DNA of 64,000 nt from Mercenaria mercenaria. Its lineage: Eukaryota. Shown here piece after piece: positions 9,134 through 57,668 of the stretch (its first letter is position 1; each line of letters starts with the position of its first letter). The stretch lies in assembly GCF_021730395.1 (NCBI RefSeq), contig NC_069369.1:15411210-15475209 (forward strand). Direction: 5' to 3'. The translations under genes were made by a program, and so were the position numbers. The notes beneath the pieces are model-generated. The model had not been told where the DNA came from and did not search any database. It saw only the letters and a program-made list of their open reading frames with translations.

Positions 9134-10870
9134 AACAAGAGGGTCATGATGACCCTGGATCGCTCACCAGAGTAATATGAGCTACATTTTTCAAATGTCA
9201 AACTGATGATTTTTAGAAATTTTTTGTAAGATTTTCCGATGTACAATCAAGTAACCCCTGGGGCAGAGCCAATTTTACCCCGGGGGTCATCATCATCAGA
9301 TTTGAACAAAGTTTGTAGAAGTGTACTAGGCAATGTTACATATCAAATATCTAAGACCTAGGCCTTCTGGTTTATTTTTAGCAAATTTATGAAGATTTCC
9401 CAATGTACAATCAAGTAACCCCTGGGGCTGGGTCAATTTGACCCTGGGAGTCAAGATTTTAACAACTTTTGTAGAGGTCCAGTAGGCAATGCAACATGTC
9501 AAATATCTAAGCTCTAGGCCTTCTGGTTTATTTTTAGAAAATTTTGAAGATTTTTCTATGTACAATCAAGTAACCCCATGGGGCGGGGTCAATTTTGACC
9601 CCGGGGGTCATGATTTGAACAAATTTTGTAGAAGTCCACTAGGCAATGCCACATGTCAAATATCTAAGATCTAGGCCTTCTGGTTTATTTTTAGAAAAAT
9701 TTTGAAGATTTTCCTATGTAAAATCAAGTGACCCCTGGGGCGGGGTCAATTTTGACCCTGGGGGTCATGATTTGAACAAATTTTGTAGAGGTCCACTAGG
9801 CAATGCTACATGTGAAATATCTAAGCTCTAGGCCTTCTGGTTTATTTTTAGAAAAATTTTGAAGATTTTCCTATGTAAAATAAAGTGACCTCTGAGGCGG
9901 GGTGAATTTTGACCCCGGGGGGTCATGATTTGAACAAATTTTGTAGAGGTCCACTAGGCAATGCTACATGTGAAATATCTAAGCTCTAGGCCTTCTGGTT
10001 TATTTTTAGAAAATTTTGAAGATTTTTCTATGTACAATCAAGTAACCCCATGGGGCGGGGTCAATTTGACCCCGGGGGTCATGATTTGAATAAATTTTGT
10101 AGAAGTCCAGTAGGCAATGCTACATGTGAAATATCTAAGCTCTAGGCCTTCTGGTTTATTTTTAGAAAATTTTTGAAGATTTTCCTATGTAAAATCAAGT
10201 GACCCCTGGGGCGGGGTCAATTTTGACCCCGGGGGTCATGATTTGAACAAATTTTGTAGAGGTCCACTAGGCAATGCTACATGTAAAATATCTAAGCTCT
10301 AGGCCTTCTGGTTTATTTTAAGAAAAATTTTGAAGATTTTCCTATGTAAAATCAAGTGACCCCTGGGGCGGGGTCAATTTTGACCCCATGGTCATGATTT
10401 GAACAACTTTAGTAGAGGTCCACTAGGCAATGCTACATGTCAAATATCTTAGCTCTAGGGCTTCTGGTTTTTGAGAAGAAGATTTTTTAAGATTTTCCTA
10501 TGTAAAATCAAGTGACCCCTGGGGCGGGGTCAATTTTGATCCCGGGTTCATGATTTGAACAAACTTGGTAGAGGTCCACTAGGCAATGCCTCACACCAAA
10601 TATCTAAGCTCTAGGGCTTCTGGTTTTTGAGAAGAAGATTTTTAAAGTTTTTCCTTTCAGTTGCCATGGCAACCAGAATTCTGCATGGAATTCAATTCTT
10701 TGAATAACTTTGTAGAGCTTCACCCAAGGAACATTCCTGTGAAGTTTGGATGAAATTGTCCAAGCGGTTTATGAGGAGATGTCATTAAAAGTAAAAGTTT
10801 ACGGACGGACGCCAGACGGTGACTGATCCTAATAGCTCACCCTAAGCCTTTGGCTCTGGTGAGCTAAAAA
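9134..10870 (+). mobile_element. Non-autonomous tandem-repeat carrier element, Helentron/HINE-like
   Basis: 5' motif aacaagagggtcatgatgaccc. About 9 tandem units of about 158 bp (…ggggcggggtcaattttgaccccgggggtcatga…) run from about 9,290 to 10,650. A unique tail contains acggacggacgcc, followed by the 3' hairpin tagctcacc…ggtgagcta. Confidence 0.6.
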
Positions 10871-11458
10871 GAGGTAAATGAACAATATGAGCAATAATTA
10901 ACAGAATGAAGAAGTCAAAAGATAGAAAGAAGAATTCAATACCAAAATGAATACTGAATGAAGATGTCATCAGTAAACTGAAAATGATGAAGGACAAAAG
11001 GAAGATATTCCTAAGTTTAACAGACAGGCCAGTGAAAAGAATAAATTAAGAGGCTCCTGCACAGAACAGAGATCTTAACAAAATGAAGATGCTAAAGGTA
11101 AGAACAGTTTGTTTGTTCGTTTGTTTTGGGTTTAACGCCGTTTTTCAGCAGTATTTGTCATGTAACGGCGGGCAGTTAACCTAACCAGTGTTCCTAGATT
11201 CTGTACCAGTACAAACCTGTTCTCCGCATGTAACTGCCAACTTCCCGACATGAATTATCTGAGGAAAGGAAAGAACAGAACACAAATGAATAGACAAAAT
11301 GGCTAATGAGCAGAATGACCAGATAAATAAATAGACCAAATGACCAAAGATATTAAAAAGGTCTTTGAACTACCAAGAAGGGTCAGTTTTTGAAACATGA
11401 CAACCAGACTATGGAGAAAGAATTTGCGGAAACAATACAGTGAAGTGACAATACATAC

Positions 11459-11506
11459 CTTTAGTGGCTTTCTTGGCTTCAGCAGCCTCTGCAGCAGCTT
11501 TTGCTT
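11459..11506 (-). CDS. Small exon (EAKAAAEAAEAKKATK)
   Basis: Acceptor caacag and donor AAAG|gtatgt. The exon is 48 nt. Its phase links the exon at 14831 to the exon at 8830, and its Ala/Lys-rich content matches the flanking exons. Confidence 0.4.
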
Positions 11507-12050
11507 CTGTTGATGATACAACATTACACAATATAGTCACACATCATACAACATAATTACTAAACATGTGTAACATATTAACATTTAAAAATAAAAAATT
11601 AATTCTTGGACTTTATTCTTCAACATTCAAAGTCAAACATTAAACCTAGAACATCAAACATTTCCACCATTTATCTATATTTTTGCTTGCACATCGTTAG
11701 ACAGAATGGAAATTCTTAAAGTCTGGTAAGGGATTAAAAGTTTGTTTAAAAAAGTTGCTGATGACTTGACCAGAACTACACATTTTACATAAATCATTAC
11801 GTTTTATTAAATGTAATATGATGGACAAGTGTAATTATACACCAGGTCATAGGACTGAAAAGGATTCTTTATATCATTCTTTTTTTATATCTTGAGAACA
11901 TGCATTCTTTTGGAAAGTACTATCCATTTGATTTTTTATACCTTTCCTTTAAATTCAAAAAAAGAATATTTTACCAGTATTAACAAATTATAGCTATATC
12001 TAAATAAGAAGTTTCTTGTTTCAACTAAAAAAAACCCAAAGAAAGTATTT

Positions 12051-12495
12051 AACAAGAGCTGTCCGTAAGACAGCATGCTTGACTTTTCTCAGTGCTTGAC
12101 TCTGAATTAGAGCTTTGCCTGTAAAAGGGTCATAAATCTGTCAAAATTCTAATTAGAGTTATGGGGATTGTTTCTTATGGTGTAGCCTTTGATAGAAAAT
12201 AACTATTTTAAGTTTCAAGTCAATAGCTTTGATAGTAACAGAGATATTGGATGTTATATAAAACTTTAACCAAACAATTCTAAGTTAAAAAGGGGCATAA
12301 CTCTGTCAAAATTCAATCAGAGTTATAGGGATTGTTTCTCCTGGTGTAGACTTTGATAGTAAATAAATATTTTAAGTTTCAAATCAAAAGCTTTGATAGT
12401 AACAGAGATATTTGACTTTATCGAAAACTTTAACCACGACGCCGACACTGGGGCAAATGCAATAGCTCTACATTTTCTTGAAAAGTCGAGCAAAA
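12051..12495 (+). mobile_element. Tandem-repeat carrier element, same family as above
   Basis: 5' aacaagagctgtc, two units of about 190 bp, a (gacgcc)-type microsatellite, and the 3' hairpin tagctctac…gtcgagc. Confidence 0.55.
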
Positions 12496-13429
12496 AAGGA
12501 AAAAAGAATGGCACAAAAATTAAGGCCCTGTTTATCAACAGAAAAACTTACTGGACTCAGATAATCATTTTTTATTCCTTTTGATATAAAAAAATCAAAA
12601 TAAATATGGAACAATGTGGACACAATGAATATTTATGTGAATCTGCACGAATAAAATGTGCATTAAATATATACATGAATGCAAAAAGCAAGCTTGTTTG
12701 AACCAACACCTCTATAAACAATTGGACATTTATGATAACAAAGGAGTATATAATGGAGGGACAAACAGCATAGACATGGGTAAAACCAATCCCCTCATAC
12801 AGAGTTGTCTTTTCATTCTGCCCAAGCTTACATGCATTTAGATAGATCCCTTTCTGGTTTATATTACATTAAGCACCTGATTCTGTGATATCATTCTTGC
12901 CAGTATGTGCATAAGGGGAGGAGGGGGGGGGGGGGGTAAGTTTCATAGACTTTGGTCAAGTCAAATCAGAAAATTAGACCCCAATAAGCAAGTTAAAATC
13001 CCTAATTTTATATCCTCAAAACTAACTGCTTTAACTGATATTAAGTGATTTCACAGTACAGTTCTCTGATTTGCTCATCCATTGGTAACTGGTCATAACA
13101 AGGCAACCTGACCATAATAAAGCAGTAGAAATATTTCCAACCAAATGTATATTTTACACAACCTTGTATGTTTGTTTAATATTTTACTCGCTAATTATTA
13201 TGTATATGGCTTGTTCATGGATATATATCAAGGACTCAGTGTGCTTTACATTCTAATTCATTAAAGCTTGATACCTTTAGTATCAAGTTTTTTTGCTTGC
13301 ATTTTGTTTTCTTGAATACTACTTCTGGCTTTTTTCTTCATAAAAACCAAAGATCATCCAGAGGAATGTCATACTAGATAAGGATTGTGCAGCTCATCAT
13401 GGAGGTTTTGAATACTGTAAAATCATTTA

Positions 13430-16829: not shown

Positions 16830-18185
16830 AACAAGATCGCTCACCTGACCTATTGACCTAAAGATCAGATCATCAAGATTAACATTCTGACCAAGTTTCA
16901 TTAAGATATGGTCATAAATGTGGCCTCTAGAGAGTTAACTAGCTTTTCCTTTGATTTGACCTAGTGACCTAGTTTTTGACCCCACATGACCCAGATTCGA
17001 ACTTTTATCCTCCTTAAGATCATAAAGATAAACATTCTGACCAAGTTTCATGAAGATACAATCATAAATGTGGACTCTAGATTATCAACAATTTTTACCT
17101 TTGATTTGACCTGGTGACCTAGTTTTTGACCCCAATTGACCCAGATTGGAACTTGACCTTTAGATCATTCAGATTAACATTCTGACCAAGTTTCATTAAG
17201 ATATGGTCATAAATGTGCCTCTAGAGAGTTAACTAGCTTTTCCTTTAATTTGACCTGGTGACCTAGTTTTGACCCCACATGACCCAAATTCAAACTTGAC
17301 CTAAAGATTATCAAGGTTAATATTCTGACCAAGATTCATGAAGATACAGTCATAAATGTGACCTCTAGAGTGTTAACAAGTTTTTCCTTTGATTTTTTGA
17401 CCTGGTGACCTAGTTTTTGTTCCCACATAATCCAGATTCGAACTTGACCTAGAGGTCATCAAGACAAACATTCTGATTAAGTTTCATAGAGATATTGCCA
17501 TAAATGTGGCCTCTAGAGTGTTAATAAGCTTTTCCTTTGATTTGACCTGGTGACCTAGTTTTTGATCCCATCCCGCCTGACCCAGAGTTGAACTTGGCCT
17601 ATAGATGATCAAGATTAACATTCTGACCAAGTTTCATTAAGATATGGCCATAAATGTGCCTCTAGGGTGTTAACTAGCTTTTCCTTTGATTTAACCTGGT
17701 GACCTGGTTTTTGAGGCTATAGGACCCAGATTCAAACTGGACCTAAAGATCATCAACATTTACATTCTGACCAAGTTTGATGAAGATACAGTCATAAATG
17801 TGGCCTCTAGAGTGTTAACAAGTTTTTCCTTTGATTTGACCTGGTGACCTAGTTTTTAACCCCAGATGACCCAATATCAAACTTGTCCAAGATTTTATTG
17901 AGGGTAACATTCTGACCATGTTTCATTAAGATTGGGCCAAAATTGTAACCTCTAGTGTGTCAATAAGCTTTTCCTTTGATTTGACCTGGTGACCTAGTTT
18001 TTGACCCCAGATGATCCAATATCAAGCTTGTCCAAGATTTTATTGAGGGTAACATTCTGACAAATTTCATTAAGATTGGGCCAAAATTGTGACCTCTAGA
18101 GTGTTAACAGTCAAATTGTTGACGACGGATGGATGAACGACTGACGACGACGGACACAGGGCGATCACAAAAGCTATAATTAAGG
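16830..18185 (+). mobile_element. Tandem-repeat carrier element
   Basis: 5' aacaagatcgctcacc, about 10 tandem units of about 120 bp (…aacattctgaccaagtttcattaagatatggtcataaatgtggcctctagag…), and a 3' (gacgacgg)-rich tail. Confidence 0.55.
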
Positions 18186-18958: not shown

Positions 18959-20225
18959 AACAAGAGCTGTCGGATGACAGCGCGCTCGACTATTCGAAGA
19001 ATTGATTGAAGAATGGGGTCAAAATATTTCCATAGATTTTCAGACAAAAGAAAAATATGGATTAAACAAAAAATGTTCCTGTATTTTTGGATTTCGATTA
19101 GTCTTGCACTAAATGGCAATGTGCAAGACCATGATGGCAAATATGTTAAGTTATATGTTAGGCAAAATATGGACTTGTATGAAAAATCTAACTAAATTCC
19201 AAGTCCAAAAAGGGTCATAATTCAGTCAAAATAGCTGACAGAGTTATGTACACTTGCCTACAGATGGAAATCATGTTGATATACTAGTGTTAAAAGTTTC
19301 AAAGCCACAGTTCAAATAGTTTTGACAAAAAATTCAAGTCCAAAAAGGGCCATAATTCAGCCAAAATAGTTGTCAGAGTTATGTACTCTTGCCTACAAAT
19401 GGAAATCATAATGATAAACAAGTGTTCAAAGTTTAAAAGCCATATGTCAAATAGTCTTGACAAAACATGGACATATACGAAAACAGAACCAATTTCCAAG
19501 TTCAAAAAGGGCCATAATTCAGCCAAAAAAGATGACAGAGTTATGTACTCTTGCCTTTTGATACAGACTATAATACTGAACAAGATATAAAAGTTTCAAA
19601 GCCATAAGTCAAACATTTTACACAAAATATAAACTGGTACGAAAAACTTAACCAAGATTTCTAAGTCAGAAGGGGCCATAATTCAGCCAAAATGCTTGAT
19701 GGAGTTATGTACTCTTGCCTACAACTGGACATGGTGATGGTAAACAAGTGTTGAAAGTTTCAAAGCTTTATCTCTAAAGACTTTGTCAAAATGTGGACTG
19801 GTACGAAAAACTTAACCAAGATTTCTAAGTCAAAAAGGGGCAATAATTCAACCAAAATGCTTGATGGAGTTATGTACTCTTGCCTACAACTGGACATGGT
19901 GACGGTAAACAAGTGTTGAAAGTTTCAAAGCTTTATCTCAAAAGACTTTGTCAAAATATGAACTGGTACGAAAAACTTAACCAAGATTTCTAAGTCAAAA
20001 GGGGCCATAATTCAGTCAAAATGCTTGACAGAGGTATGTACTCTTGCCTATAACTGGACATGGTGATGGTAAACAAGTGTTGAAAGTTTCAAAGCTTTAT
20101 CTCAAAAGACTTTGTCAAAATGTGGACTGGTACGAAAAACTTAACCAGGGTGTGACGCCGACGCCGACACCGACGCCGTGGTGAGTAGGATAGCTCTACT
20201 TATTCTTTGATTAGTCGAGCTAAAA
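18959..20225 (+). mobile_element. Tandem-repeat carrier element
   Basis: 5' aacaagagctgtcggatgacag, about 6 units of about 160 bp (…aaagggtcataattcagtcaaaat…gttatgtac…), a (gacgcc)n microsatellite, and the hairpin tagctctac…gtcgagcta. Confidence 0.6.
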
Positions 20226-22439
20226 ATGATAGATGTTTGCTAGTCACAGGAAATCATCATGCAAAGTGCATACTCCAGTTAAAAAACATATGGTTGACTG
20301 GCAAACAAAGAAATAGAGCGATGGACATAATGGTGAACATGAGCAAAAGAATACTGCAATGTCTCCCCCTCCCCACAAATGAATTGTCTTTATTTTATGA
20401 ATGCTTGAAGTATATATCTACACTATATCTATAAACTAACCAAATGACTTTCAACAGTTTCTAAACTGACCTCCAATTCTGTCTGCAGTCAGAAAATAAT
20501 CAATAATATCAAATTTAATCAGATCTTTTTTGTTTTGGTCTTAATTGCAACCCTCTCATCTAGTTATATTACAATGCAATAATATAGCTGTCTGCTACCT
20601 AAGTATCTACACAAATATGACATGGTAAACCCTGAAATCTGAAAGCCAATATTAAAAAATTGTCAGACTATAGTGAAACCTGTCTTAAGAGACCACTTAA
20701 GTGAGAGCAAAAATGTGGTCTTATAAGACAGGTGGTCTTTTAATACAGGTTCAATCTATATGAAATGTACTATAGAGGGACCTAAAATAAATGGTCTTAT
20801 AACACAGGTTTTGCCTAATATAGGTGGTCTCTTAAGCAGGTTTCCTTTCAAAATCACTGTTAATAGTGGAACTGAGAGATACAGTAGCTATAGAAACAAA
20901 CAATTTTTAGGAAGAAATACTTCCACCTAGCAGCTCTACTTCTAACAGACACTGTTATATTTGCTGCTCTCATCATCTGCTTAGACAGATGGACATTCCT
21001 GCATTTTTTTCAAGAGGAATGACTCCAGATGGTTAAAACAATAAAAATATTCATTTTTTTAAATTAGCTAGCAGTGTTTATTACATCTCTAAATAAACTC
21101 GTATCCATTGGTCAAAACTTCTACATTTCACACTGAATAAGTATCATTTTCAGTTTCAAGGATATTCCAAGCGGTATATAAGGTATAACGTATTGTACCT
21201 TCCGTATTGTATGCTGCCGGACTACTTTCATTAATATGCATGACCTGACAAAATTCTATAAATAGCACACATAAAACTTCACATAGTTCCATACACTGAA
21301 GATTTCGTTCAATAACAAAACAAGAAACAAAAGTTTACTCGAACCAAATACAGCATTCCGGATCGAGCTACTGTTATAATAATCCTTTTATACTAAGCTT
21401 TCAAAAAGTGTATTTCATATGTAAGAAAAAAAAGTAACAATATTAAGTTAAATGACATAAACAGGACGTTATACATTTTTGCATACTATTCCTATTCTGT
21501 CAAACTAATAAATGCTAATAAATCCATTGATGCTGGTTCCTACTTTTTGGTCTGAAAATGCTGCTTTATATAACAATACAATTGTTAACTCTTAAGCCAT
21601 CAGATATGATGTGATATTCAACAAAAGGCAGTAATAATGAACTCAGTTATTGTCTCGGTCATTACAGCCTTCTTCTGGTGACTATAACATCATATCTAAT
21701 GCCTTAATGGTATAAAATTAAGATATTAAAAATTATTTATCAATATTATTCAGTATGATATTTCATATAAAGTACAAGATAAAGAACATCTCAAATCCTT
21801 CTAATTCACTTGACTTTTCTACATTATTAATGTGACAGCACTAAGTGATCTAATATATTATCACAATGGATCACTTTGATTTTACTTTATTTTACACTTA
21901 CTACTGCATCATATCTTATACATTCTAATCCTGACCCTTTAACCAAATCATTCTTACAATGATTTACTACCTACTAGTATTTTTTTTCTAAACTGGCGTC
22001 TGTAAAATTAAGCCTTATTCTTACAATAAGCATAGAATCATTGTCAATTTCAAAAAGTTCTGCCTGCCTTGAAACACAACATAGTTTTCCATTGACTCTA
22101 GACTTAGCAAACACTTACCAAAGTTTGTTCCATCCATACATATTAAACATTTAAACAATGTAACATCTAAACATCAAAACACTTAAGTTACAACTAGCAA
22201 GGCTCTATCAGTTGTTGATCTATCCATTTTTCTTTTACAGTTACACATTTTTACACTAAGAAATAGCTTTGAAACTCAGTCATTTGAATTCTTTAAGTCA
22301 AATACGTTTAAAAGTATACATCTTAATGTCATATTTAAACTCAGAAAGTTTAACTCAAATGTATGAAATACTTGGACAGACTTCAAATTCTCGAGTTTCA
22401 ATAGTAATGCTACTAAGCTGACAACAGCAGACTAGATAC

Positions 22440-23135
22440 ACACAGGTTCCATTCATACACATTGGGTCCATTCATACACATTGGGTCCATTCATACACAC
22501 AGGTTCTATTCATACACTCTGTGACCCATTCATACATACTGGAACCACTCATACATACTGGGTCCCATTCATACACACTGGGTCCATTCATACACACAGG
22601 TTCCATTCATGCCCTCTGGAACCATTTACACACTCTGAGACCCATTCATACATACTGGGTCCCATTCATACACACTGGGTCCATTTATACATACTGTGTC
22701 CCATTCATATGCACTGGGACCATTCAAATACACTGGGTCCATTAAAACACACTGTGTCAATTCATACACACTGGGACCATTCATACACACTGGGTCCATT
22801 CAAACACACTGGGCCCATTCATACATACTGGGTCCATTCATACACATTGGGTCCATTCATACACATTGGGACCATTCATACACATTGGGTCCATTCATAC
22901 ACATTGGGACCATTTATACACACTGGGACCATTCATACACATTGAGTTCATTCATACACACTGTGCCCATTTACACACATTGGGACCATTCATACACTCT
23001 GGAACCATTCATTCAAATTGGGTCCATTCAAACACATTGGGTACATTCATACACAATGGGTCCATTCATACAAATTGGGAACATTCATACACATTGGGAC
23101 CACTCATACACACTGGCTCCATTCATACACTTTTC
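22440..23135. repeat. Minisatellite with a 19-bp unit (cattcatacacactgggtc), about 35 copies
   Basis: The period is visible by eye. Plus-strand track ORFs at 22481..23307 are all artefacts of the repeat. Confidence 0.8.
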
Positions 23136-24539: not shown

Positions 24540-25200
24540 TATTTCAAATTATTCTGAAAGATTTGCTGCTGATATTGTTAGGAATATTTCTGTGGGATCA
24601 AGATTTATTGCTGGGCATATATGGAATATTTCTGACAGTTGCGATTTTGTTTGAGAATATCTGAAATATTTCAGATGGACTGAGATTTGCTGCTTGGAAT
24701 GTCTGGAATATTTATGATGGATTGAGATTTGCTGCTGGGAATATATGGAATATTCCTTAGGGATTGAGATTTGCTGCTGGGATTGTCTGGAACATTTCTG
24801 AGGGATTGAGATTTGCTGCTGGGAATGTCTGGAACATTTCTGAGGGATTGAGATTTGCTGCTGGGAATGTCTGGAACATTTCTGAGGGATTGAGATTTGC
24901 TGCTGGGAATGTCTGGAACATTTCTGAGGGACTGAGATTTGCTGCTGGGAATGTCTGGAACATTTCTGAGGGATTGAGATTTGCTGCTGGGAATGTCTGG
25001 AACATTTCTGAGGGACTGAGATTTGCTGCTGGGAATGTCTGGAACATTTCTGAGGGACTGAGATTTGCTGCTGGGAATGTCTGGAAGAATTCTGAGGGAT
25101 TGAGATTTGCTGCTGGAAATGTCTGTAAGAATTCTGAGAGATTGAGATTTGATGCTGGAAATGTCTGGAACATTTCTAAAAGACTGGAGAATATGTTATC
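24540..25200. repeat. Minisatellite with a unit of about 41 bp (gattgagatttgctgctgggaatgtctggaacatttctgaggg), about 15 copies
   Basis: The tandem period is visible by eye. The 165-aa minus-strand and 147-aa plus-strand track ORFs are internally repetitive artefacts of it. Confidence 0.8.
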
Positions 25201-31060: not shown

Positions 31061-31084
31061 ATCTACACATATATCTGATACATA

Positions 31085-35319: not shown

Positions 35320-35392
35320 CTGTAAATAAACATCATATGTCACAGTTTGTTTTAAAGAAAAGAAAAGAAACTAGAGATGCTTTGAGAAAAGC

Positions 35393-38381: not shown

Positions 38382-38939
38382 CTAAAAAAGTGATAAGTAT
38401 TGCCAATGATCATACATAAGTCCTCCTACTGGAAGACTTTGTTCTACTGCGTATAATATAATGAGATTTATGTTAATGAGTATAAACACTAGTGTCTATA
38501 ATATACAAGTATAATTATAAAGAAACACTTGATAAAATTTTGCATACATTAATAACTTATAGATGCTTTGCTTGGATTAAATTTTGACCATTTTGAAAAA
38601 GTTATTATGTAAGGTTATTCTACAGTACACAGAAAGGGTATAATATTGTTAATCCCTAAAAATAATATAACACAAAAAGAACAAAAACTATTAGACCAAA
38701 AATATGTGATAAAAGTCCACAATATTATCTTTACCAGGTTAGAATAGTCAAGACATCTTAAAATTCAAATGTACTGCATGTATGTTACCACAGAATAGTG
38801 GTCCTTATTTTTCCTAACAGCAGTAATTTAAAAAAGTACCAATATAAGTAATTTATAGTAACAACAAAGGTAGAATACGTAAAAAAGGGTGCTTCATGGC
38901 AATGAACATTTGTGCCCCAAATTACATTCAAAATCCGTC

Positions 38940-40205
38940 TGCATAGGAGAATAATATCTTTTGGAAAACAAAGTCAATCTTAACAATTAACCTTTGACCT
39001 CTATGAATAGACTTGACCTGTAAACTAAGTGACCTGTTCTTGCCATGACTAATCCGTCTCATATTTGGTGAACTTGTGCCATGTTTCACAATTTCCTCCA
39101 TCATGAAGAAGAAATGCTCACTAGAGAAAGTCATTTTTTGTATTGACCAACTTTGTCCTATATGTGACCTTGAACCTTTTGACTTAGGCCGGGTTATTGG
39201 CAGGCTTTCTGTCTCATCCAGAAAATGTTGTGCCATACCTGTATTTAAATCCTGCTTGCATTGACAAAGTTTATAGACCTGAAGGAAAAAAATCCTATGA
39301 ACCTTCTGATCACTAAGTGTGACCTTGACTTTCATCATGGTGAGACACATTTTGCGCCAAGAATATTTAAATCCCTTCATGAGGTCAGAGTTTTGACGGA
39401 CAGGAAAAAACCTGTTGACATTTGACCTCCAATGTGACCTTGACCTTTTGGTAGGGGATTAGAGTCTTGCGCTAGAACACTCTGTCTCCTCATGGGAATC
39501 ATTTATCCAATTGAATTATATGAGAATCCCTTAATGGAAGACAGAGTTAGGACCGGTTCACACGAAGAGAACCCTTTTAATGCCAAGTTAACATTTGACT
39601 GCAAGTGTGTGGACCTTTGACCTTTGACAGGTTTGAAATTGGCATGCACATGTTTTATTATGAGTTCATTTGTTGCCAAATTTATATAATACAAAATCCC
39701 TTCATAGGTAGCAGAGTTATGGACAGACAGGAGAAAACTAGTGACTTTTGACTCCAATTGTGACCTTGAACCTTTGAGCAGAGATCCTGGGATTTTATAT
39801 GAATAACATCATCTCTCTTGGGTAACATTTTGCAAGTTATATTAAATCTTAATGAAATGACAAGTTTATGGCCGACACGAGCAGACCCTTTCCATGCATG
39901 CTAACATTGACTGATAAGTGTGCCTACTCTTTGAGTAGGACGCAATTTGGGATACACTGTCTTATTATGAGGTTCATTGTGCAAGTAATTTAAATCCCTT
40001 CATGGATGGCAGAGTTATGACACAGTACAGGAGAAATACCTTTGACCTTTGACCACAATTTGGACTTGACCTTTGAGGTAGTGGTCCGGGTCTTTGAACA
40101 CATGTACAATGGGGTACATTTGGCAAGAATTTAAATTAAAATCTCTTTGATGACAAGTGTATGGGACTCGACATAAATTGTGGACGGACGGACGGAATGA
40201 CAGAA
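38940..40205 (+). mobile_element. Degenerate tandem-repeat carrier element (gaccttgacc…-type units)
   Basis: Diverged units of about 170 bp end in the gtggacggacggacggaatgac microsatellite. The 5' end is not clearly identified. Minus-strand track ORF 38928..39380 lies inside it and is probably spurious. Confidence 0.4.
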
Positions 40206-40431
40206 AAGACACTTCCTATAGTCCCAAGGGGAAAATGGTTTTCAACCGTAAGAAGACTAATAAAGTCTTATTTTGCCTAAATACTTTCATCACATGGTGA
40301 ATACTTTCTAGGAAAGAATGCATTTGTTCCCATGTGTTAATGTCCTTGCCAGCACTTGTATAAATTTTGAAGCAGAATACCTCAGCAATGTAGTAAGAGT
40401 ATTTCGAATATAAAGAATACATTGCACAAAC

Positions 40432-41347: not shown

Positions 41348-42040
41348 AACAAGAGCTGTCACTAATGGTAACAAATGCCCCCGCAGCGCCATGACCTTTG
41401 ACCTGGTGACCTTGACCTTTGACCTTGTGACCCCAAAGTCAATAGGGGTCGTGTACTCAATAAGTACTATTAGCATGTGAAGTTTGAAAGTCCTGGGTGC
41501 AGTGGTTCGCAAGTAAAGTGCCTTCATGCAAAAAGTTAACATTGGCCCCTGTGACCTTGACCTTTGACCCCAAAGTCAGTAGGGGTCGTGTACTCAATAA
41601 GTACTATCAGCATGTGAAGTTTGAAGGTCCTGCGTGCAGTGGTTCGCGAGTAAAGTGCATTCATGCAAAAAGTTAACATTGGCCCCTGTGACCTTGACCT
41701 TTGACCTGGTGACCCCAATGCCAATAGGGGTCGTCTACTCAATAAGTACTATCAGCATGTGAAGTTTGAAGGTCCTGGGTACAGTGGTTCGCGAGTAAAG
41801 TGCCTTCATGCAAAAAGTTAACATAAGCCCCTGTGACCTTGACCTTTGACCTGGTGATCGCAAAGTCAGTAGGGGTCGTTTACTCAATAAGTACTATCAG
41901 CAAGTGAAGTTTGAAAGTCCTGGGTGCAGTGGTTCGGGGGTAAAGTGCCTTCATGCAAAAAGTTAAAGTTGTGACGAACGAATTAACGAACGGACGGATA
42001 GTTGAAAACTAATATGCCTCCCTTCGGGGGCATAAAAATA
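41348..42040 (+). mobile_element. Complete small tandem-repeat carrier element
   Basis: 5' aacaagagctgtcactaatgg, about 5 units of about 110 bp (gaccttgacctttgacc…cagtggttcgcgagtaaagtgccttcatgcaaaaagttaac), then gaacgaattaacgaacggacggat, then the hairpin atgcctcccttcgggggcat. Confidence 0.65.
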
Positions 42041-44415: not shown

Positions 44416-45414
44416 ACGGCTCATATCAAAATCTGTCAGAAAGTTCTAAAGATTCTTATATCTGAACTCTCAAGCACCTTTACAGAATCTTTACAGTCTT
44501 ACAACAGAACACCATAAATTTATAACCACTATACTTACTTTCTAGAAAGGCTAAGTGAGAGAGGAAAGAACAAGGAAACTATCTGAGGTAAATGCCTTTT
44601 AAGTCCATAGATCCTAAATATCTAAAAGATTTTATATAGTCCTCACACCTGTAATTAGTAAAATTAGTAAATGACTGACAAATGGAAAGAATTTAGTCAT
44701 AATATGTAAATGTGTTTTATTGCAAACTCTGCTTTTATCTGTAAACCACACAAGTTAGTAATTATTTTCCCTATTTCTGATATATATATATGTTCTTCTC
44801 TCTATCCACACTAGAATGGTAAATATCCATGCACCAAAAGCATGCTATATCATATACTGTACCGTTACTGTTCTTGCCAAGAGCAAGTTCAAGAGCTAAC
44901 ATACACAAATATCAAATATCAACACAAATAAACAAACATCAAAGATCAACAGAAATACACACACACAAACAGAAATATTGAAACATCAAATATCAACAGA
45001 AACATAACAAATCATTATCTGATGTGTAGTCAACAAATTTGAAAATGATAACGAAATTTAACGTCCAAAATGGGCTATCAATGATGGAAAATAATATCAT
45101 TCACATAACAATTTTCAAAACTTTGAAACAGTTATTATATTTTTTATCAATCCTTTTCACTCAAGGACTTCAAAAATGCCCCATATATGTATTTGAAAAA
45201 TTTGATATTAGAAGATTTTATAACACATATATTTATGAAACATACATAATAATGAATGAATTATGTTATTGAGGTGGTAATTCTTCTGTATAAAAGAAGG
45301 TTGACAGTTGCTCAATAAGCTCATATTCAGGGTAGTTTTATTCGGATATATATAGATTTGGTTAAAGCAACTGAAAAACAAGAGCAACACAATGCGGAGC
45401 AATATACGCCCTTA

Positions 45415-45650
45415 GGTATGACCTTTGACCCCTAAGTGTGACCTTGAACTTGAAGCGAGCCATCGAAAACATGCGCTCTACACATTGCCTCAATGCGGTC
45501 AACATTTGTGTCAAGTTTCTTTGAAATCCTTTAAGGGGTTCAAGAGTTACAGAGCTGACACGAAATTGCTAATGGACAGACGGTTGGACGGACACCTGCG
45601 TCATAACATAATAAATCCCTTCAGGCATATAATAATATTGAATATCCATT
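45415..45650 (+). mobile_element. Fragment of a tandem-repeat carrier element
   Basis: A single gaccttgacc-type unit followed by the ggacagacggttggacggac microsatellite. No 5' motif was found. Confidence 0.35.
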
Positions 45651-46589: not shown

Positions 46590-46910
46590 GCAGTCTCTGT
46601 ATATGAGAGGGGCAAATTTTTTCCAAATAATAGAATTTCTTCAAACTTTGGATATTGCAGGACAATCATCTAAGAAAGAAAGGTATGCAATAAAAGTCAA
46701 AGGTCACTGGTATTGAAAAAGAGTTATCTGCCCTTTTTGAGAAAATGACGTTTTTGAGGGCAGATAACTCTTTTTCAGTGCTGGTGAGCTGTGCTTTTTA
46801 TTACATATCTTTTTTCTTAGGTGATTGTTATTCACTATCCAAAGTTTGAAGAAATTCTATTATTTGGAAAAATTTTGCCTATCTCATATAGAGAGACTGC
46901 TAGCATATGC
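46590..46910. mobile_element. Long foldback element, copy 2
   Basis: The same arms (ttcttcaaactttggatattgcaggacaatcatctaagaaag … gagttatctgccctttt…agggcagataactctttttc … atccaaagtttgaagaaattct). Confidence 0.5.
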
Positions 46911-49639: not shown

Positions 49640-50900
49640 AACAAGAGGGCCATGATGATCCTGTATCGCTTATCAGAGTTTCACAGATCAAACAGGTAAA
49701 ACAAGAAGCATTTCTGTCAAATAACATTGAAAACTGGCCAACAGATTCAGAGGAAGTTCCCATAGAGCCGTATTGGGAAAACTAGAACTACACCTGGCAG
49801 CCTTGTTTAATTCTGAATTCAAAATGTTTTAACAATTTCAGTTGGGGTTCAACCAAGGAACATGTTTGTGAAATAATTTCAAAAACAGGCCAGTTGTTCA
49901 GGAGGAGCTGTTACCTGAAGTTGTTTTTTTCCAACAGTATTTCACAAGAAGATTTTTGCAGTTATAACAATATACATATAGGGAAACTGGTGGGCACCTT
50001 TTTGACAAATCGTAATAATTTAAACAGTCTTGGTAGAGAATCACCAAAAATCATTCCTAAGAAAATATTCTGAAACTGGGCCAGCAGTTTCCACTTAATA
50101 CACAAAGAGAAAAGTAAGCATGCCCTCTTTTGACGAATCAAAATAAACTGAACAATCTTTTGAGAGGGTCACTTGAGTAACATTTCTGTAAAACAAAATT
50201 TTTGAATAATGTAAAAAAATTAATAAAGGATCACCATTGGAACATTTGTGTATGATTCTAAAATCAGGCCAGCATCTTCTGACAAGAAGATTTCTAAAGT
50301 TTCCAATATGGGAACTGCTCTTTGGGAGCAAATTTTTTAGATGAATAAGAAAAATTTAGAACATTCATGTTAGAGTCATCTAAGGCTTATTTGTGTGAAA
50401 TTATTTTAAATCAGGCCAGCAGTTTCCGAGAAGAATTTTGATTTTCACTGTTACATATATACAGGGAAAAGTGACCATGCCTTCTGACAGCCATGTTTTT
50501 TGACAAATCAGTATAATCTGAAAAACCTTGGTACAGTTTGACCAAAGGACTATTTTACTGAAACTGTTCTAAAATTAGGCAATCAGTTTCTGACATGGAT
50601 TCCAAAGTTTCTACTATGAATATAAAGGTAAAAGTGACCAAGCCCCCTGAAGGCTGTATTTTTGATGAATAGTAATAATTTGAACAATGTTGGAATATTG
50701 TCACCAAAGGAACATTTCTATGAAATAATTTTAAAATTGAAGCAGCATATTAGGGGTTGGGTCAGATGTTGTTTTAAAATGTTTCTTCTTTAGGTACTGG
50801 TGACCCTTATGCACAAATAAGAGGATCTATTTGAACAACTTTACAAGAACAAAGAATGGACAGACAGATCATGGACCACAATAGCTCTGGAAGCTAAATA
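49640..50900 (+). mobile_element. Tandem-repeat carrier element
   Basis: 5' aacaagagggccatgatgatcc, about 6 units of about 170 bp (…aaatcaggccagcagtttc…gggaaaagtgaccatgcc…) from about 49,700 to 50,850, then ggacagacagatc, then tagctctgg. Confidence 0.55.
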
Positions 50901-51489: not shown

Positions 51490-51965
51490 AATAGGTTACG
51501 ACTTAAAATACTGGAGTCTTCTATACTGGAGTCTTCTATCTTCAAATAGCTAGGTTATGAGTGTTAAATACTGAAATCTTCCATCTTCAATAAGATAGGT
51601 TATGACTTGAATACGGAAGTCTTCTATCTTCAAATAGCTAGGTTATGAGTGTTAAATACTGAAATCTTCCATCTTCAATAAGATAGGTTATGACTTGAAT
51701 ACAGAAGTCTTCTATCTTCAAATAGCTAGGTTATGAGTGTTAAATACTGAAATCTTCCATCTTCAATAAGATAGGTTATGACTTGAATACGGAAGTCTTC
51801 TATCTTCAAATAGCTAGGTTATGAGTGTTAACTACTGAAATCTTCCATCTTCAATAAGATAGGTTATGACTTGAATAAGTAAGTCTTTTATCTTCAAATA
51901 GCTAGGTTATGACTTAAACACAGAAGTCTTCTATCTTCAACTACCTAGGTTATGTCTTAAATAAA
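51490..51965. repeat. Tandem repeat with a unit of about 120 bp, made of two subunits of about 60 bp (…tcttctatcttcaaatagctaggttatgagtgttaaatactgaaatcttccatcttcaataagataggttatgacttgaa…), about 4 copies
   Basis: The tandem period is visible by eye. Confidence 0.7.
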
Positions 51966-52053: not shown

Positions 52054-52153
52054 CATCAACAACATGTTTGTGTAGAGACTCTTGTTTCTCTGCTAGATGT
52101 TTTACCATGATATCACACTGTAGAAACTCAAGTTCCAGGTAGAATCCCTGATC
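52054..52153 (-). CDS. Exon (DQGFYLELEFLQCDIMVKHLAEKQESLHKHVVD)
   Basis: Acceptor ttggacag and donor GAT|gtaagt. The sequence matches part of minus-strand track ORF 51950..52171. Confidence 0.5.
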
Positions 52154-52727: not shown

Positions 52728-54099
52728 CTGAAATTATGATAAAACTTTACAAACTCACCCCTATCACTAATTCAACGCTGTAATTACTCATTTCTATCTC
52801 TAAATGCTTTACAGTATCTTCATAGACAATTAATATTTGAAAGCATAAGGCCAAACATAAATTTCCTATGCAGAAATTCTATAACATATCACAACTGATT
52901 CTGAATTTCAATTAAATATAAAGATATCTTTATTCTTCAAAATGCAAGACACTAAATACAATGTAAAGAAAATAATTCAACATAAATAATAATCACATAG
53001 GACCTAAACTGAAATTAAGTGTGTTTGCCCTTTACCTTCCAACCCAAGACCTGAATCTGCCAGGTACTTTCACATTAAATGGAGACTTGTGATTCTTTTT
53101 AATTTAGAGGTGTACAGTATTATAGTGATCACACCATTTCCTATGATGAAGTAATGAATTACCACACTTAATTATATCTAAGAAATCAAAATATCAGAAT
53201 TGTCAAGTTGGTTTTAATGATAATTGCTTTCTTACTGTTGAACTGTGATGACTATAATACAGTTTGTCAAAATATGCATAACATTTGGAAAAAGGCAACT
53301 GCACATGCACTGGACCAAGGGGAAGGCTTGGAATTGTTAAGGAAAGGCATACATGTAGTTTGTCCTTGACCATTCTTTAACACAATTTATCTAAACTTAG
53401 TTGTTTTATAGCAAAACTGTCTCTTGTAAATGAAATAGGCAAATTATTGAGAATACACATTAATGGTGCAGACAGACAAGGCCATACAGCCTGACATCTG
53501 CTTTGTCTCGTTAAGAAAACACGGGAGCCCTTGTAGGCATTTTTGAGTACGCAATAGAGTAGAACCTCAAATATTTCTCAAACAAACTGTCTCTGTCTGT
53601 CTCTCTCTCTCTCTATATATATAGTCTTATATTAAATAAATCATGAAATGAAAAGAAATAAGAACATTTATTTATGCTAACTGAATAATTTGAGAGGGTA
53701 AAATAATTACCTACCTACATACCTACCAAATGTTAAAAAAGATAAGCAGGTAAAGGGTAAACACACTTATAATTTTAATTTCTACCTAACCAATAATATC
53801 TACTAATCTAAAACAATGCAGAAATTGCATGGTTTTGTGTGAAAGCATTGTCATATATAAATATATAAAGTGAAGACTACAATCCTTATCTACTGTAAGC
53901 TTAGTGACTTCTAAGCTATGACTATACAAACCTGACCAGTAATAATGTACATCACTCCACGTCTATAGGACACATAAATATAGTGAATATTTTGTTTATC
54001 AGGTAAGTTTTGTCAGACTTTAGAAAAAGATATTTTAAAAACAATCTGAACTGAACAGGTGTTGTCCTGATGCAAAGGATTCTGGAACAGTAAGGCATC

Positions 54100-54655
54100 T
54101 GCCAAGTCTCTGACCTATGTTTGACAGTAAGGCATCTGCCAAGTCTCTGACCTATGTTTGACAGTAAGGCATCTGCCAAGTCTCTGACAAGTCTCTGACC
54201 TATGTGTGACAGTAAGGCATCTGCCAACACTCTGACCTATGTTCGACAGTAAGGTATTTGCCAAGTCTCTGACCTATGTTTAACAGTAAGGCATCTGCCA
54301 AGTCTCTGACCTATGTTTAACAGTAAGCCATTTTCCAAGTCTCTTACTTATGTTCGACAGTAAGGCATCTACTAAGTCTCTGACCTATGTTAGACAGTAA
54401 GGCATCTGCCAAGTCTCTGACCTATGTTTAACAGTAAGGCATCTGCCAAGTCTCTGACATATGTTTAACAGTAAGGCATCTGCCAAGTCTCTGACATATG
54501 TTTGACAGTAAGGCATCTGCCAACTCTCTGACATATGTTTGACAGTATTAAAGGCATCTGCCAAGTCTATGACCTCTGTTTGACAGTAAGGTATCTGTCA
54601 ACTCTCTGACCTATGTTTGACAGAAAGGCATCTGCCAAGTCTCTGACCTATGTTT
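54100..54655. repeat. Minisatellite with a unit of about 42 bp (tgtttgacagtaaggcatctgccaagtctctgacctatg), about 13 copies
   Basis: The tandem period is visible by eye. The 92-aa minus-strand track ORF 53952..54230 is an artefact of it. Confidence 0.75.
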
Positions 54656-54705
54656 GAGGTGATATCTTCTTTACAGGAGAGTTTATTTCACTACTATTTA
54701 CTTAC

Positions 54706-54786: not shown

Positions 54787-56269
54787 CTAGTAAGCAGTTA
54801 TATAAGTTGTAAATAGTATTTATGGTGTTTGTGATTGAAAAATATAAATTCTTATATTATGTAGCTATTTCTAGTTGTGAGAACTACAGTGTGAAGTATA
54901 TATCCATGTCAAATACCATGTTCAAAGGCATATTGCATTTTAGTACAAAATTGCAAATAATGCTAATTGTATTTCAGTCAATTTTTTATTCTATTTAGCT
55001 GATAAAATTTGCTTTTGTTGAATGGTGTCATCTTTAAACAAGACTTACATGACTAGGGAGTTTGAACATGTATTCAACTGGGATTAAATGCTAAATTTGT
55101 ATTAACATTTTGTTTTGCTCAAAATTTCTTTACATACTTGCCAGATGTCCAGCCTTTATACTTTCTCGTTTTGCTTCAATTAAAATATATTAAATATCTA
55201 ATTATCAAACAAACTTTTAACACAGTTAACAAGCTATAGCCACATGAAAAATAGTTCTATAATAGTCTGACAAAACAGACTAGACAGTAGAAAGTGAAAA
55301 CAGCAAAAAATATTCCAACACCAGTTCAAAGATTTTATAACAAAGTTTTTAGAAAATATGAAGTGAGAAGAGACATGGTGGAAATAATACTGGTGTTACT
55401 CAATCAATAAATACTGACAATCTTGAGTCTAAACAGTTGTAATTTTCTAGGCCATTGAAACATATATTTACAATAATATGATAACAAACTAACTGTAGAT
55501 ATATAATTACAATCAGTGACAATAAGTGGTTTCTATGGAAACCTAAAAAAACTTATACATACAAGACCAGAGAGCTTTCAGGCTTTAACTGATGTAAAAA
55601 AAATACATTATAAAAATAATATATCATGGATTGCATTTATTTCTTTTTATATAGGTCTGATCAATTTGCATAATACTATAATATGAGTATGAAAAACAGT
55701 TTCAACAGAAAAGTTTCATGAAATATGATACTGCAATCTAGCATTTTAGAAAAAGCTAACAGAGACAATTTCAGAAAACATTTTTAAAGCAAATGTTATG
55801 GAAGAGGTAAAACAAACTGATCTGTGAAGTAACAGCTAGGACATCATTTGACTAGAGAGCTTACAGCAAGAGATAGTTGTAGCTACACCCTTGGTTTTTA
55901 TTACATACAAGAATAGGCTTTGCACATTGTGTCATTGTGGGGAATATTTGCACAAAATATTTCAAAATTTCTAGGTACATCTAGATTAAACATCCTTAAC
56001 GTTAATTTTCTGACTTGCGCTCTTTTTAAATGATCTTTAGAGACTGATAACATAACAAGTTAGCTTCATAATGACTCAGATTGGTGTATTTTCGATACAA
56101 TATCATTTTATTGTATTAAACATTTTAGAATATTCAACACATGAGGGAAAGCAGCAACCTTGGCCTTGAACAGACATTGATAAAAGTTTCATCCTAAATT
56201 TGTGTCTCTACAATGGAAAATATTGTTGCTAAATTAATTACAAGGGTGCCATAGTCACAAAATTCTCCA

Positions 56270-56668
56270 GTCGAGAGCTTGCTAAGTTGTCATTCTTGCA
56301 TCTGACCTTTGACCTCTTAGTCTGACCTTGACCTTCAACCTAGGGACCTGGTTCTTGCGCATGACACTCTGTCTCATGATGGTGAATAGTTGTGCCAAGT
56401 CACATCGAAATCCTTCCATTCACGAAGAACAAATACTCTGGACAAAGTCATTCTTGAATGTGACCTTTGACCTCTAAGTGTGACCTTAACCTTAGACATA
56501 GGGACCTGGTTCATGTGCATGACAGGGATGGTGAACATTTGTGCCAAGTTACATTTAAATCCCTTCATGCATGAAGAAGAAATGCTAGGAAAAAAGTTTG
56601 TTTGATGCTGCCCTCCCGCCTGCCCGCCAAGGGCATTTCCAGAATACCACTGTCTTTCGGACGGGCAC
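56270..56668 (+). mobile_element. Small tandem-repeat carrier element (gaccttgacc-type units)
   Basis: About 2 units, then ctgccctcccgcctgcccgcc, then a 3' end …cggacgggcacataaaaag whose terminus matches other copies. Confidence 0.45.
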
Positions 56669-56789
56669 ATAAAAAGTTTTTTCTGTGGGCAAAAAGACTA
56701 AGAGCAAATTTTGTGATTGACAGACAGAAAGCCAGTTAAGATAAGACTTTCCTACAGTCAGGAGAATGTTTTAGCTGTCAATAAACATG

Positions 56790-57668
56790 AAACTAGATGT
56801 GTCCATAGGACACAGGTGCCCCCACTCCTGCCACTGTAACAAGGTTTAATGACTCAGGTTAAACAATTTTTAAGATACAACATTCCTGTAGTTTTGTGAC
56901 TCTACATCAAATACTTTTGGAGCTATGCACGACAAAACATTAAAATGACAATATTTTCCTAGGTCAGGGGCCATAACTCCTACAATACTGAATGAATCCG
57001 GACACGAAACCCCAGGTGCACAACTGCACATGTGACCAACATTCCTGTAAACTTTGGTGACTCTAGGTTAAATACTTTCGGAGCTATGTGCGATACAACA
57101 TTAAAACGACCAATTTTTAACTAAGTCAGGGGCCATAACTCCTACACGACAGAACGAATCCGGACGCAAAACCCCAGGTGCACAACTGCACGTGCTGACC
57201 AACATTCCTGTAAACTTTGGTGACTCTAGGTCAAATACTTTTGGAGCTACACGCGATACAACATTGAAATGACCAATTTTAAACTAAGTCAGGGGCCATA
57301 ACTCCTACATGACTGAATGAATCGGATGCGAAACCCCAGGTGCACAACTACACATGCTGACCAACATTCCAGTAAAGTTTTGTGACTCTAGGTCAAATAC
57401 TTTTGGAGCTACGAGCAACACAACACTAAAATGACCAATTTTTACAAAGTTAAGGGCCATAACTCCTACACAACTAAATGAATCTGGACGCGAAACCCCG
57501 GGTGCACAACTACACATGCTGACCAACATTCCTGTAAAGTTTTGTGACTCTATTTCAAATACTTTTGGAGCTAGGCCCGACACAACATTCTTGGAAGGAC
57601 GGACAGACGGACGGACACACAAGAGCAAATCTATATGCCCCCACCACTCATGGGGGGGCACAAAAAGA
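56790..57668 (+). mobile_element. Tandem-repeat carrier element
   Basis: About 4.5 units of about 178 bp (…gtcaggggccataactcctaca…gaatccggacgcgaaaccccaggtgcacaactgcac…), then ggacggacagacggacggac, then the hairpin tgcccccaccactcatgggggggca. Confidence 0.6.

Follow-up and report, generated by a model that had tools for sequence, protein, structure and literature searches.

Thirteen tandem-repeat elements of probable Helentron type in the predicted introns of a CFAP46 gene from Mercenaria mercenaria

Non-autonomous Helentron-type rolling-circle transposons (HINEs) have a published anatomy that runs, from 5′ to 3′, through a subterminal inverted repeat (subTIR), an inverted repeat (IR), a (GTCY)n microsatellite, central repeats, a second subTIR, and a palindrome 8–35 nt from the 3′ end, with T-runs at both boundaries (PMC4067079, PMC7492417). 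Elements of the kind are already well described as pearl, DTC84, MgE, Cg_HINE and DINE-1, and only the particular families reported below may be new. The sequence analyzed here is a 64,000-nucleotide stretch of Mercenaria mercenaria DNA (NC_069369.1, positions 15,411,210 to 15,475,209, forward strand), referred to as the window and numbered from its first letter. It contains 13 element copies, located in the predicted introns of a gene for cilia- and flagella-associated protein 46 (CFAP46), which are very probably HINEs of the same kind as DINE-1, pearl, DTC84 and Cg_HINE. An initial annotation, made from the sequence alone, had proposed Helentron-type elements carrying tandem repeats in a fixed order of modules; this proposal is borne out, and the anatomy corresponds feature by feature to that of HINE, DINE-1, Cg_HINE, pearl and DTC84.

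Read on the − strand, the elements consist of 4–6 T, a hairpin formed by subTIR and IR, a (GTCY)n microsatellite, a tandem array of 1–9 units of ∼145–190 bp, the 3′ subTIR, a palindrome, and a terminus of ∼8 nt ending in TT, which is either CTCTTGTT or TCTAGTT. The subTIRs are 9–19 nt long, and the stem of the 3′ palindrome is 5–7 bp. On the + strand the palindrome directly follows AACAAGAG (AACTAGA in E5 and E11) and reads GGGTCATGATGACCC, GCTGTC-loop-GACAGC, GCTTTGAGAAAAGC or GTGTCCATAGGACAC. The microsatellites (reverse complements of the ACGG, GACGCC, and GGACAGAC types) are invariably placed between the hairpin and the array, a (CA)n-like tract taking their place in E5. On the − strand copy E4 reads TTTTT-AGCTCGACTAATCAAAGAAT..GTAGAGCTA-(CGGCGT)n-array-ATTCTTCGAATAGTCGAGC-GC-GCTGTCATCCGACAGC-TCTTGTT. 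The 5′ and 3′ labels of the initial annotation are inverted with respect to convention: what it called the 5′ end, AACAAGAG, corresponds in reverse complement to the 3′ terminus CTCTTGTT, and what it called the 3′ terminal palindrome consists of the 5′ subTIR and the complementary IR. It had overlooked both the actual 3′ palindrome, which is short and adjoins AACAAGAG, and the complementarity of 9–19 bp between the two ends. The corrected orientation is needed for finding autonomous partners. Every testable structural feature by which HINEs are recognized (PMC4067079, PMC7492417) is present, namely the subTIR pair, the 5′ IR hairpin, the 3′ palindrome, (GTCY)n with repeats in fixed orientation, T-rich insertion lacking target-site duplication, and noncoding, multi-copy character. 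The module order, the folding potential of the hairpins, the complementarity of the ends, the conservation of termini among multiple copies, insertion into oligo-T free of target-site duplication, and the lack of coding capacity are direct observations.

An end-to-end inverted match of 9–19 nt (scores 8–13) is found in all six intact copies, and the remaining seven have lost it or retain it in decayed form; in each intact copy it pairs a segment about 20–45 nt from the left end with the outer arm of the right hairpin. Measured against random 60-mer pairs drawn from the window, the individual matches have empirical p values of 0.005–0.14, and the six combined by hand using Fisher's method give ∼2e-5. 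When folded as single-stranded DNA, the 5′ hairpins of the intact copies have energies of −5.0 to −12.8 kcal/mol (z −2.5 to −5.8), and the 3′ palindromes of five of the six have energies of −4.3 to −6.0 kcal/mol. The palindrome stems end 6–10 nt from the terminal TT in E1, E2, E4, E5, and E11 (z −2.3 to −5.7). The sub-terminal microsatellites and the five hairpins quoted by the initial annotation are present where it placed them, the hairpins having energies within the range just given. The motif AACAAGAGS occurs six times, always on the + strand, against 1.4 occurrences expected, and none of 100 shuffles reaches six; five of these occurrences had been recognized as element starts, and the sixth, at 45377, is the true start of a copy previously placed at 45415. 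With at most one mismatch, GGGYCATAAYTC occurs 16 times against 0.7 expected, and 13 of these occurrences lie in units of E2, E4, E5, and E11, the other three being stray one-mismatch matches. The GGG(C/T)CATAA(C/T)TC core previously described as common to several unit types is accordingly upheld, with 13 matches in units of four elements.

Alignment of the element ends yields four main terminal families, in keeping with the earlier view that several distinct subfamilies share the locus. Family A (E1, E3, E9) has the hairpin TAGCTCACC...GGTGAGCTA, family B (E2, E4, E13) has TAGCTCTAC...GTCGAGCTA, family C (E7, E8, E12, and probably E6 and E10) has ATGCC(T/C)CCC...GGGGGCAT, and family D (E5, E11) has the 3′ end TCTAGTT in place of CTCTTGTT. 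E5 and E11 have only the terminus in common and, because their hairpins and subTIRs differ, could from their sequences be counted as separate families. The 13 copies contain eight unrelated unit types, which are independent of the flanks: E1, E3, and E9 have common flanks around unrelated units of 157 bp, 145 bp, and ∼170 bp, respectively. Searches with nhmmer reveal that TGACCTTGACC-type units are common to E6, E8, E10, and E12, and that a 164-bp unit is common to E2 and E4. The locus displays module shuffling directly, with unrelated arrays standing between the same termini, and its at least four families provide signatures for annotation (T-run+AGCTCACC..., T-run+AGCTCGAC..., T-run+ATGCCCCC..., and the CTAGTT-ending type). 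By eye, the unique spacer of E1 (10656–10800) resembles the degenerate units of E9 (49700–50750; ...CAACCAAGGAACAT...GTGAA...), a resemblance that would suggest the remnant of a second, older array type.

Copies outside the window were identified in metagenomes using the pattern AACAAGAGCTGTCN{4,5}GACAG, which matched 76 loci. At ∼22 of these the contig is eukaryotic with low GC, and the match runs on into ...GACAGC(A/G)(C/T)GCTCGACTATTC, the family-B subTIR; the remainder are mostly chance matches in bacterial genes, as expected because the pattern has 18 fixed bases and was run on a collection of that size. Profiles of family-B ends detect 23 left and 18 right ends in the low-GC contigs, and ∼20 independent family-B copies with both termini conserved are present in the metagenomes. 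Eleven complete metagenome copies (104–2134 bp), together with E2 and E4, have TTTT(T)AGCTCGACTATTCGAAGAATATGnAGAGCTA at one end and GAATAGTCGAGCnnGCTGTC-loop-GACAGCTCTTGTT at the other. Arrays of 162–174 bp units with the GGGGCATAATTC box are found in four of six inspected metagenome copies, most of which have a (GACGCC)n microsatellite, and one copy of 104 bp is without an array. Family-A and other unit types are also present in the metagenome contigs. The flanks of the family-B copies are unrelated, with divergence starting directly outside the T-run and the final TT, and no target-site duplication is visible in 17 complete copies, whose flanks diverge immediately outside T2–6 and TT. The joined flanks of two copies align uninterrupted to a HINE unit with the junction CCAAAAA/GGGG, a paralogous empty site that reveals insertion into an oligo-A/T run. 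Two metagenome insertions, in L045 (1810–2458) and L057 (4720–6853), share an insertion site in a unit of another HINE, namely the A5 run preceding the GGGGCATAA box; either this run is a preferred target or the nested composite has itself been copied.

Pairing between the ends can be followed across 13 family-B copies. The 5′ and 3′ subTIRs are paired in 88.5% of cells, three pairs are changed on both sides, and the covariation is 0.139 compared with 0.087 in shuffles, 4 of 500 of which reach 0.139. The 3′ palindrome is paired in 98.7% of cells, with the stem preset by the search pattern for most copies, and the 5′ hairpin is 84.6–87.5% paired with covariation absent.

The insertion footprint and the asymmetry of the ends bear on whether the elements are instead cut-and-paste MITEs (miniature inverted-repeat transposable elements), that is, elements with terminal inverted repeats and a 2-bp AA/TT target-site duplication. 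The inverted repeats of 9–19 nt between the two ends would fit such elements, as would a + strand that starts with AA and ends in A-runs, which an older reading took for a conserved AA duplication (PMC3879986). This origin is nevertheless improbable: one inverted repeat lies directly after the T-run and the other about 27–45 nt inside, behind the palindrome; the extreme ends are unlike (T4-6AGCTC... vs ...CTCTTGTT); the number of terminal T varies between copies (2–6), with no other duplication seen; and simple insertion into an A/T run that was already there fits the paralogous empty sites. The initial annotation had named unconserved termini, or terminal inverted repeats with target-site duplications, as outcomes that would contradict it, and neither was seen, both termini being conserved across copies and the ends asymmetric and duplication-free. 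Marginally less probable again is the assignment to non-autonomous canonical Helitrons (5′-TC...CTRR-3′, inserted between A and T) rather than Helentrons. Equivalent oyster elements are filed in Repbase as 'Helitron-N', the palindrome lies a few nucleotides before the 3′ end, and family D ends in ...CTAG/TT; however, families A–C end in CTCTTGTT and not in CTRR, the 5′ ends are T-runs and not TC, and subTIRs, 5′ IR, and (GTCY)n are features of Helentron/Helitron2 that are absent from canonical Helitrons (PMC4067079). Scarcely credible are ordinary satellite or segmental arrays with chance likeness of flanks, or SINE-like retroposons (short interspersed elements) with A-rich tails. In their favor, several arrays have decayed and have ends that are hard to define (E6, E10, E13), and each element ends in a short A-run on the + strand; against them, independent copies whose flanks are unrelated, within the window as well as on metagenome contigs, repeatedly have the two termini in combination, tRNA or Rfam matches and target-site duplication are absent, and the A-run is fixed at 4–6 nt and directly abuts the hairpin.

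Several observations weigh against assignment of the elements to HINEs, probable as it is. An autonomous partner is not seen in the window, and the choice of Helentron over another Helitron lineage is made from structure. Seven of the 13 copies are degenerate, and in E6, E10, and E13 at least one terminus is weakly recognizable or not recognizable. The subTIR matches are short, and two of the six are not significant individually (p 0.06 and 0.14). The CTAG followed by T at the end of family D can also be read as a canonical CTRR terminus. The empty sites used as evidence are paralogous ones on metagenome contigs rather than in this genome, the near-complete pairing of the 3′ palindrome reflects in most metagenome copies a stem preset by the search, and the hairpins are conserved without covariation. 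In the window the longest open reading frames (ORFs) are ≤222 aa; six long ones tested against Pfam have no match above threshold, with no Rep, helicase, or endonuclease domain, and no Pfam domain is found in ORFs inside the elements.

If the elements are HINEs, their mobility can be outlined from established knowledge of Helitrons and Helentrons. A Rep(HUH)-helicase-endonuclease from an autonomous Helentron elsewhere in the genome would recognize the subTIR and hairpin ends, and the Rep protein would nick inside T-runs and peel off or copy one strand as a single-stranded (circular) intermediate, to be joined into another T-run, with the 3′ palindrome acting as a stop signal or terminator. The internal arrays would be cargo that may grow or shrink by slippage or unequal exchange, and combination of different arrays with the same termini, as in E1, E3, and E9, would scatter satellite-like repeats through the genome.

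The coordinates of all 13 copies, six intact and seven degenerate or truncated, are collected in Table 1. The 11 positions in the initial annotation are real, and two copies had been overlooked, E13 and, outside the range then considered, E12. The four-part structure attributed to every element holds in six (starting at 9134, 12051, 18959, 35366, 41348, and 56790), the other copies listed at the time being decayed; the arrays, given as having 2–10 units, are confirmed, with the copy at 45377 having ∼1 unit. Three left boundaries are revised, to 35366–35369 from 35393, to 45377 from 45415, and possibly to ∼38884 from 38940. Six arrays are clear, with units of 135–164 bp. The likeness of the left end of E6 to that of E7 is not above shuffles. 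The terminus and left flank of E12 lie in a 164-bp tandem duplication with 95% identity (62971–63134 = 63135–63298), so that a second copy of the terminus is found at 63055–63078. Two kinds of candidate were rejected: the minisatellite arrays at 51523–51963 and 54087–54657 were considered as opposite-strand HINEs and have flanks without HINE termini, and CTCTTGTT at 52079 falls inside an exon.

Table 1. Probable HINE copies in the window and their parts, in + strand coordinates. Arrays marked TRF were delimited by Tandem Repeats Finder and those marked nh by nhmmer with single units as query; scores of ends against shuffles are alignment scores.
Copy	Position	Strand	State and family	3′ side	Array and middle	5′ side	Support
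E1	9134–10870	−	intact, family A	terminus (reverse complement of CTCTTGTT) 9134–9141; palindrome GGGTCATGATGACCC 9141–9155; 3′ subTIR 9160–9172	157 bp × 9.2, 9209–10655 (TRF); unique spacer 10656–10800; microsatellite 10801–10819	IR 10833–10841; 5′ subTIR 10854–10866; T-run 10866–10870	hairpin −11.7 kcal/mol, z −5.8; palindrome −5.9 kcal/mol; subTIR score 11, p 0.018
E2	12051–12497	−	intact, family B	terminus 12051–12058; palindrome GCTGTC-CGTAA-GACAGC 12058–12074; 3′ subTIR 12076–12088	164-bp units × 2 (TRF × 1.9), 12123–12436; microsatellite 12435–12448	IR 12462–12471; 5′ subTIR 12480–12492; T-run 12492–12497	nhmmer family-B ends, E 1.7e-15 and 2.9e-14
E3	16830–18176	−	family-A flanks with unrelated array	palindrome gone by precise 19-nt deletion, AACAAGA/TCGCTCACC, 16830–16848	145 bp × 8.5, 16867–18109 (TRF); microsatellite 18121–18157	hairpin mostly lost, 18159–18176	deletion from alignment with E1 and E9
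E4	18959–20226	−	intact, family B	terminus 18959–18966; palindrome 18966–18981; 3′ subTIR 18984–19002; unique leader 19003–19193	135/164 bp × ∼7, 19194–20147 (TRF); (GACGCC)n 20154–20178	IR 20190–20199; 5′ subTIR 20202–20220; T-run 20221–20226	19-nt inverted match, score 13, p 0.005; closest metagenome copy L058, 92% identity over 163 bp
E13	∼32930–33358 (left boundary approximate)	−	degenerate family-B relic		unit with AAAAAGGGCGTAATC box 32951–32975	decayed 5′ hairpin/T-run 33318–33358	right end vs E4: score 43, shuffle maximum 32; nhmmer E 1.4e-4
E5	35366–36596	−	intact, family D	terminus AACTAGAG 35369–35376; palindrome GCTTTGAGAAAAGC 35379–35392; 3′ subTIR 35393–35404	∼7 degenerate 130–170-bp units, 35492–36513 (nh); (CA)n-type microsatellite 36528–36546	IR 36561–36576; 5′ subTIR 36580–36595	hairpin −12.8 kcal/mol, z −5.1
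E6	38884–40236 (38884 tentative)	−	old copy, probably family C	left terminus not demonstrable	TGACCTTGACC-type units 38968–40148 (nh); (GGAC)n 40182–40203	decayed hairpin ATAGTCCCAAGGGGAAAAT 40218–40236	
E7	41348–42038	−	intact, family C	terminus 41348–41355; weak palindrome 41357–41373 (z −0.95); 3′ subTIR ATGCCCCCG 41375–41383	145 bp × 3.9, 41406–41966 (TRF); microsatellite 41973–41998	IR 42014–42022; 5′ subTIR 42025–42033; T-run 42034–42038	hairpin −6.5 kcal/mol, z −3.3
E8	45377–45635	−	short family-C relative	terminus AACAAGAG 45377–45384	∼1 unit, 45410–45549 (nh); microsatellite 45574–45595	decayed/collapsed hairpin 45614–45635	
E9	49640–50900	−	old family-A copy	terminus and palindrome relic 49640–49661; 3′ subTIR relic 49666–49678	degenerate ∼150–190-bp units to ∼50750 (nh 50001–50747); (GGACAGAC)-type microsatellite 50858–50876	collapsed hairpin 50881–50900	87.5% identity to E1 left end over 40 nt
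E10	56270–56675	−	probably family C; ends weak relics	diverged terminus GTCGAGAGCTTGC 56270–56282	two TGACCTTTGACC-type units, 56289–56600 (nh); without typical microsatellite	decayed 5′ end TTTCGGACGGGCACATAAAAA 56655–56675	left end vs E7: score 34, shuffle maximum 30; right end not significant
E11	56790–57668	−	intact, family D	terminus AACTAGAT 56791–56798; palindrome GTGTCCATAGGACAC 56799–56813; 3′ subTIR 56816–56825	162 bp × 4.4, 56878–57589 (TRF); microsatellite 57597–57620	IR 57636–57645; 5′ subTIR 57652–57661; T-run 57662–57666	hairpin −10.7 kcal/mol, z −4.4; palindrome −5.8 kcal/mol, z −3.5
E12	63219–63835	−	family-C copy	terminus AGCTAGAGCTATCAC 63219–63242	units 63290–63670	hairpin CCCCATATACTATGTATATAGGGG 63804–63827	left end vs E7: score 47, shuffle maximum 28

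The DNA of the window is eukaryotic and AT-rich (G+C ∼34%), and the exons of one large gene, recognized as stop-to-stop ORFs on the − strand, extend from ∼7 kb to ∼61 kb. The concatenated exons match CFAP46 in a protein search, the top named match being that of the gastropod Gigantopelta aegis (63% identity, E 1e-80); an unnamed transcript matches with 77% identity, and no near-identical protein was found in this search. Using the protein matches, tblastn locates 14 CFAP46 exon blocks, all on the − strand, between ∼29.8 kb and ∼52.7 kb. Judged from this similarity, the host gene is a mollusc CFAP46 and the elements lie in its introns, where they make up ∼21% of the 57-kb gene region. The 3′ end of E5 lies ∼45 bp upstream of a CFAP46 3′ splice site (TTTATTTACAG/GC, − strand; window 35322–35376), and the T-rich end of E5 with its target run is part of the pyrimidine-rich stretch preceding this acceptor. 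ARAGORN and Rfam scans for RNA genes in the window gave no matches.

All 13 copies, which fall into at least four terminal families and have between them eight types of unit unrelated to one another, have a single orientation, which is that of the CFAP46 sense strand. Because families differ and arrays are unrelated, the copies are taken as separate insertions, and the two-sided binomial p for 13 of 13 is ∼2e-4 (calculated by hand). Unit matches from nhmmer are all on the + strand, ACGG-type microsatellites occur on the + strand only, and a structural detector (T-run, hairpin, GTCY repeats) that proved too strict recovered three window copies only, all on the same strand. A strand asymmetry of oligo-T was rejected as the cause, given that runs of at least 5 on the + strand outside the elements comprise 179 of A and 156 of T. 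The two orientations are alike in their poly(A) signals (15 vs 17); the observed one has fewer 5′ splice-site-like hexamers (2 vs 10, small numbers), a weak hint suggestive of selection.

Metagenome contigs with several family-B ends are likewise all co-oriented (L053 with eight ends; L057, L072, and L016 with fewer); other families in these contigs agree in orientation, L045 is also among the co-oriented loci, and L030 has one switch. Part of this agreement is inevitable: a copy nested in another HINE unit's A-run necessarily takes the orientation of that unit. One metagenome copy lies downstream of a kinase ORF and is sense to it. Base skew, used as a proxy for the direction of transcription or replication, is inconsistent between the metagenome contigs. 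Strand-specific integration of a single-stranded Helentron intermediate, as opposed to selection or chance, is offered as a tentative and on balance unlikely explanation of the co-orientation; such integration would follow the direction of transcription, through the exposed non-template strand, or the movement of replication forks. Bacterial HUH transposons of the IS200/IS605 family are known to integrate strand-specifically. If the co-orientation is genome-wide, it would bear on the choice of target strand by eukaryotic rolling-circle transposons.

Other repeats accompany the elements. The CFAP46 introns contain minisatellite arrays at 22436–23130, 24559–25177, 51523–51963, 54087–54657, and 59651–60121, with units of 19, 42, 43/88, 37, and 43 bp, respectively, in 10–36 copies. 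A direct repeat of at least 135 bp with 98.5% identity (61808–61942 and 63866–64000, 2058 bp apart, the second copy cut by the window end) encloses E12 and could represent terminal repeats resembling those of long terminal repeat (LTR) or terminal-repeat-in-miniature (TRIM) elements, or a local duplication. A foldback element of ∼290 bp, internally palindromic, is present in two copies (30744–31035 and 46619–46896) that match each other on both strands, and probably represents a MITE with no relation to the HINEs; another long inverted repeat is located at ∼31080–31320. SINE-like dispersed repeats at 11100–11260 and 30180–30300, with the core ...CCAGTGTTC(C/T)TAGATTCTGTACCAGTACA..., have no tRNA or other RNA match in ARAGORN or Rfam. 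Positions 1–4800 have a G+C of 24–26%, homopolymer runs (aaaa/tttt/gggg/cccc) throughout, and many overlapping nonsense ORFs, and have the look of an unpolished or poor-quality assembly, not of biological sequence.

Among described systems, pearl of Crassostrea virginica (Gaffney et al. 2003) and DTC84 of Donax trunculus are drawn in the same sense as the + strand of the window, with a left flank, 1–5 core repeats of ∼160 bp, an (ACGG)n-type microsatellite, a right flank, and AA at the ends (PMC3879986). Their inverted motif of ∼11 bp is subterminal on the left and terminal on the right, as in the window elements, and they were originally classed as MITE-like with an AA duplication (PMC3879986). 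The conserved palindrome at the unit end of DTC84, TTGTCCGGACAA, is not seen in the window, where the box common to units is GGGYCATAAYTC. Terminal and unit-box strings searched in the text of the literature returned only an irrelevant primer match and generic matches.

The DINE-1/HINE elements of Drosophila, mite, and mosquito and their autonomous Helentrons (Thomas et al. 2014, PMC4067079) share with the window elements subTIRs of 12–15 bp, the 5′ one a few nucleotides from the end, an IR 3–22 nt downstream, a stem-loop 8–35 nt from the 3′ end, a microsatellite, optional central repeats, and boundaries of 2–5 T that vary between copies, with a TT target and an unmodified target site. The distance from the 3′ subTIR to the end is about 27–45 nt in the window and 38–60 in the mite HINE (PMC4067079). 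An autonomous partner is known for DINE-1/HINE (PMC4067079), whereas none is seen in the window, and sequence similarity to these elements is neither expected nor claimed.

A close correspondence is also seen with Cg_HINE of oyster (PMC7492417), in which the set and order of modules are identical, the likeness to the 11 oyster families being one of anatomy. Cg_HINE has a microsatellite motif of 3–8 nt (GTCY/GTCC/GTCK) and satellite-like units of ∼140–180 bp in fixed orientation. Both sets insert at T-rich sites without target-site duplication, have copies within or near genes, include a conserved box common to otherwise different units, and comprise several coexisting families, some having common flanks with unrelated arrays (oyster 'group 2'; here E1, E3, and E9). 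The 157- and 145-bp units of the window are not among the oyster clusters (PMC7492417). Oyster HINEs occur in both orientations genome-wide, local orientation not being addressed there (PMC7492417), whereas all 13 copies here are co-oriented. The locus confirms that non-autonomous Helentrons seed bivalve and mollusc genomes with short satellite-like arrays, and is a dense example of it, in that the elements occupy the fraction of the gene region given above, compared with 0.85% of the oyster genome for 13 oyster array clusters (PMC7492417).

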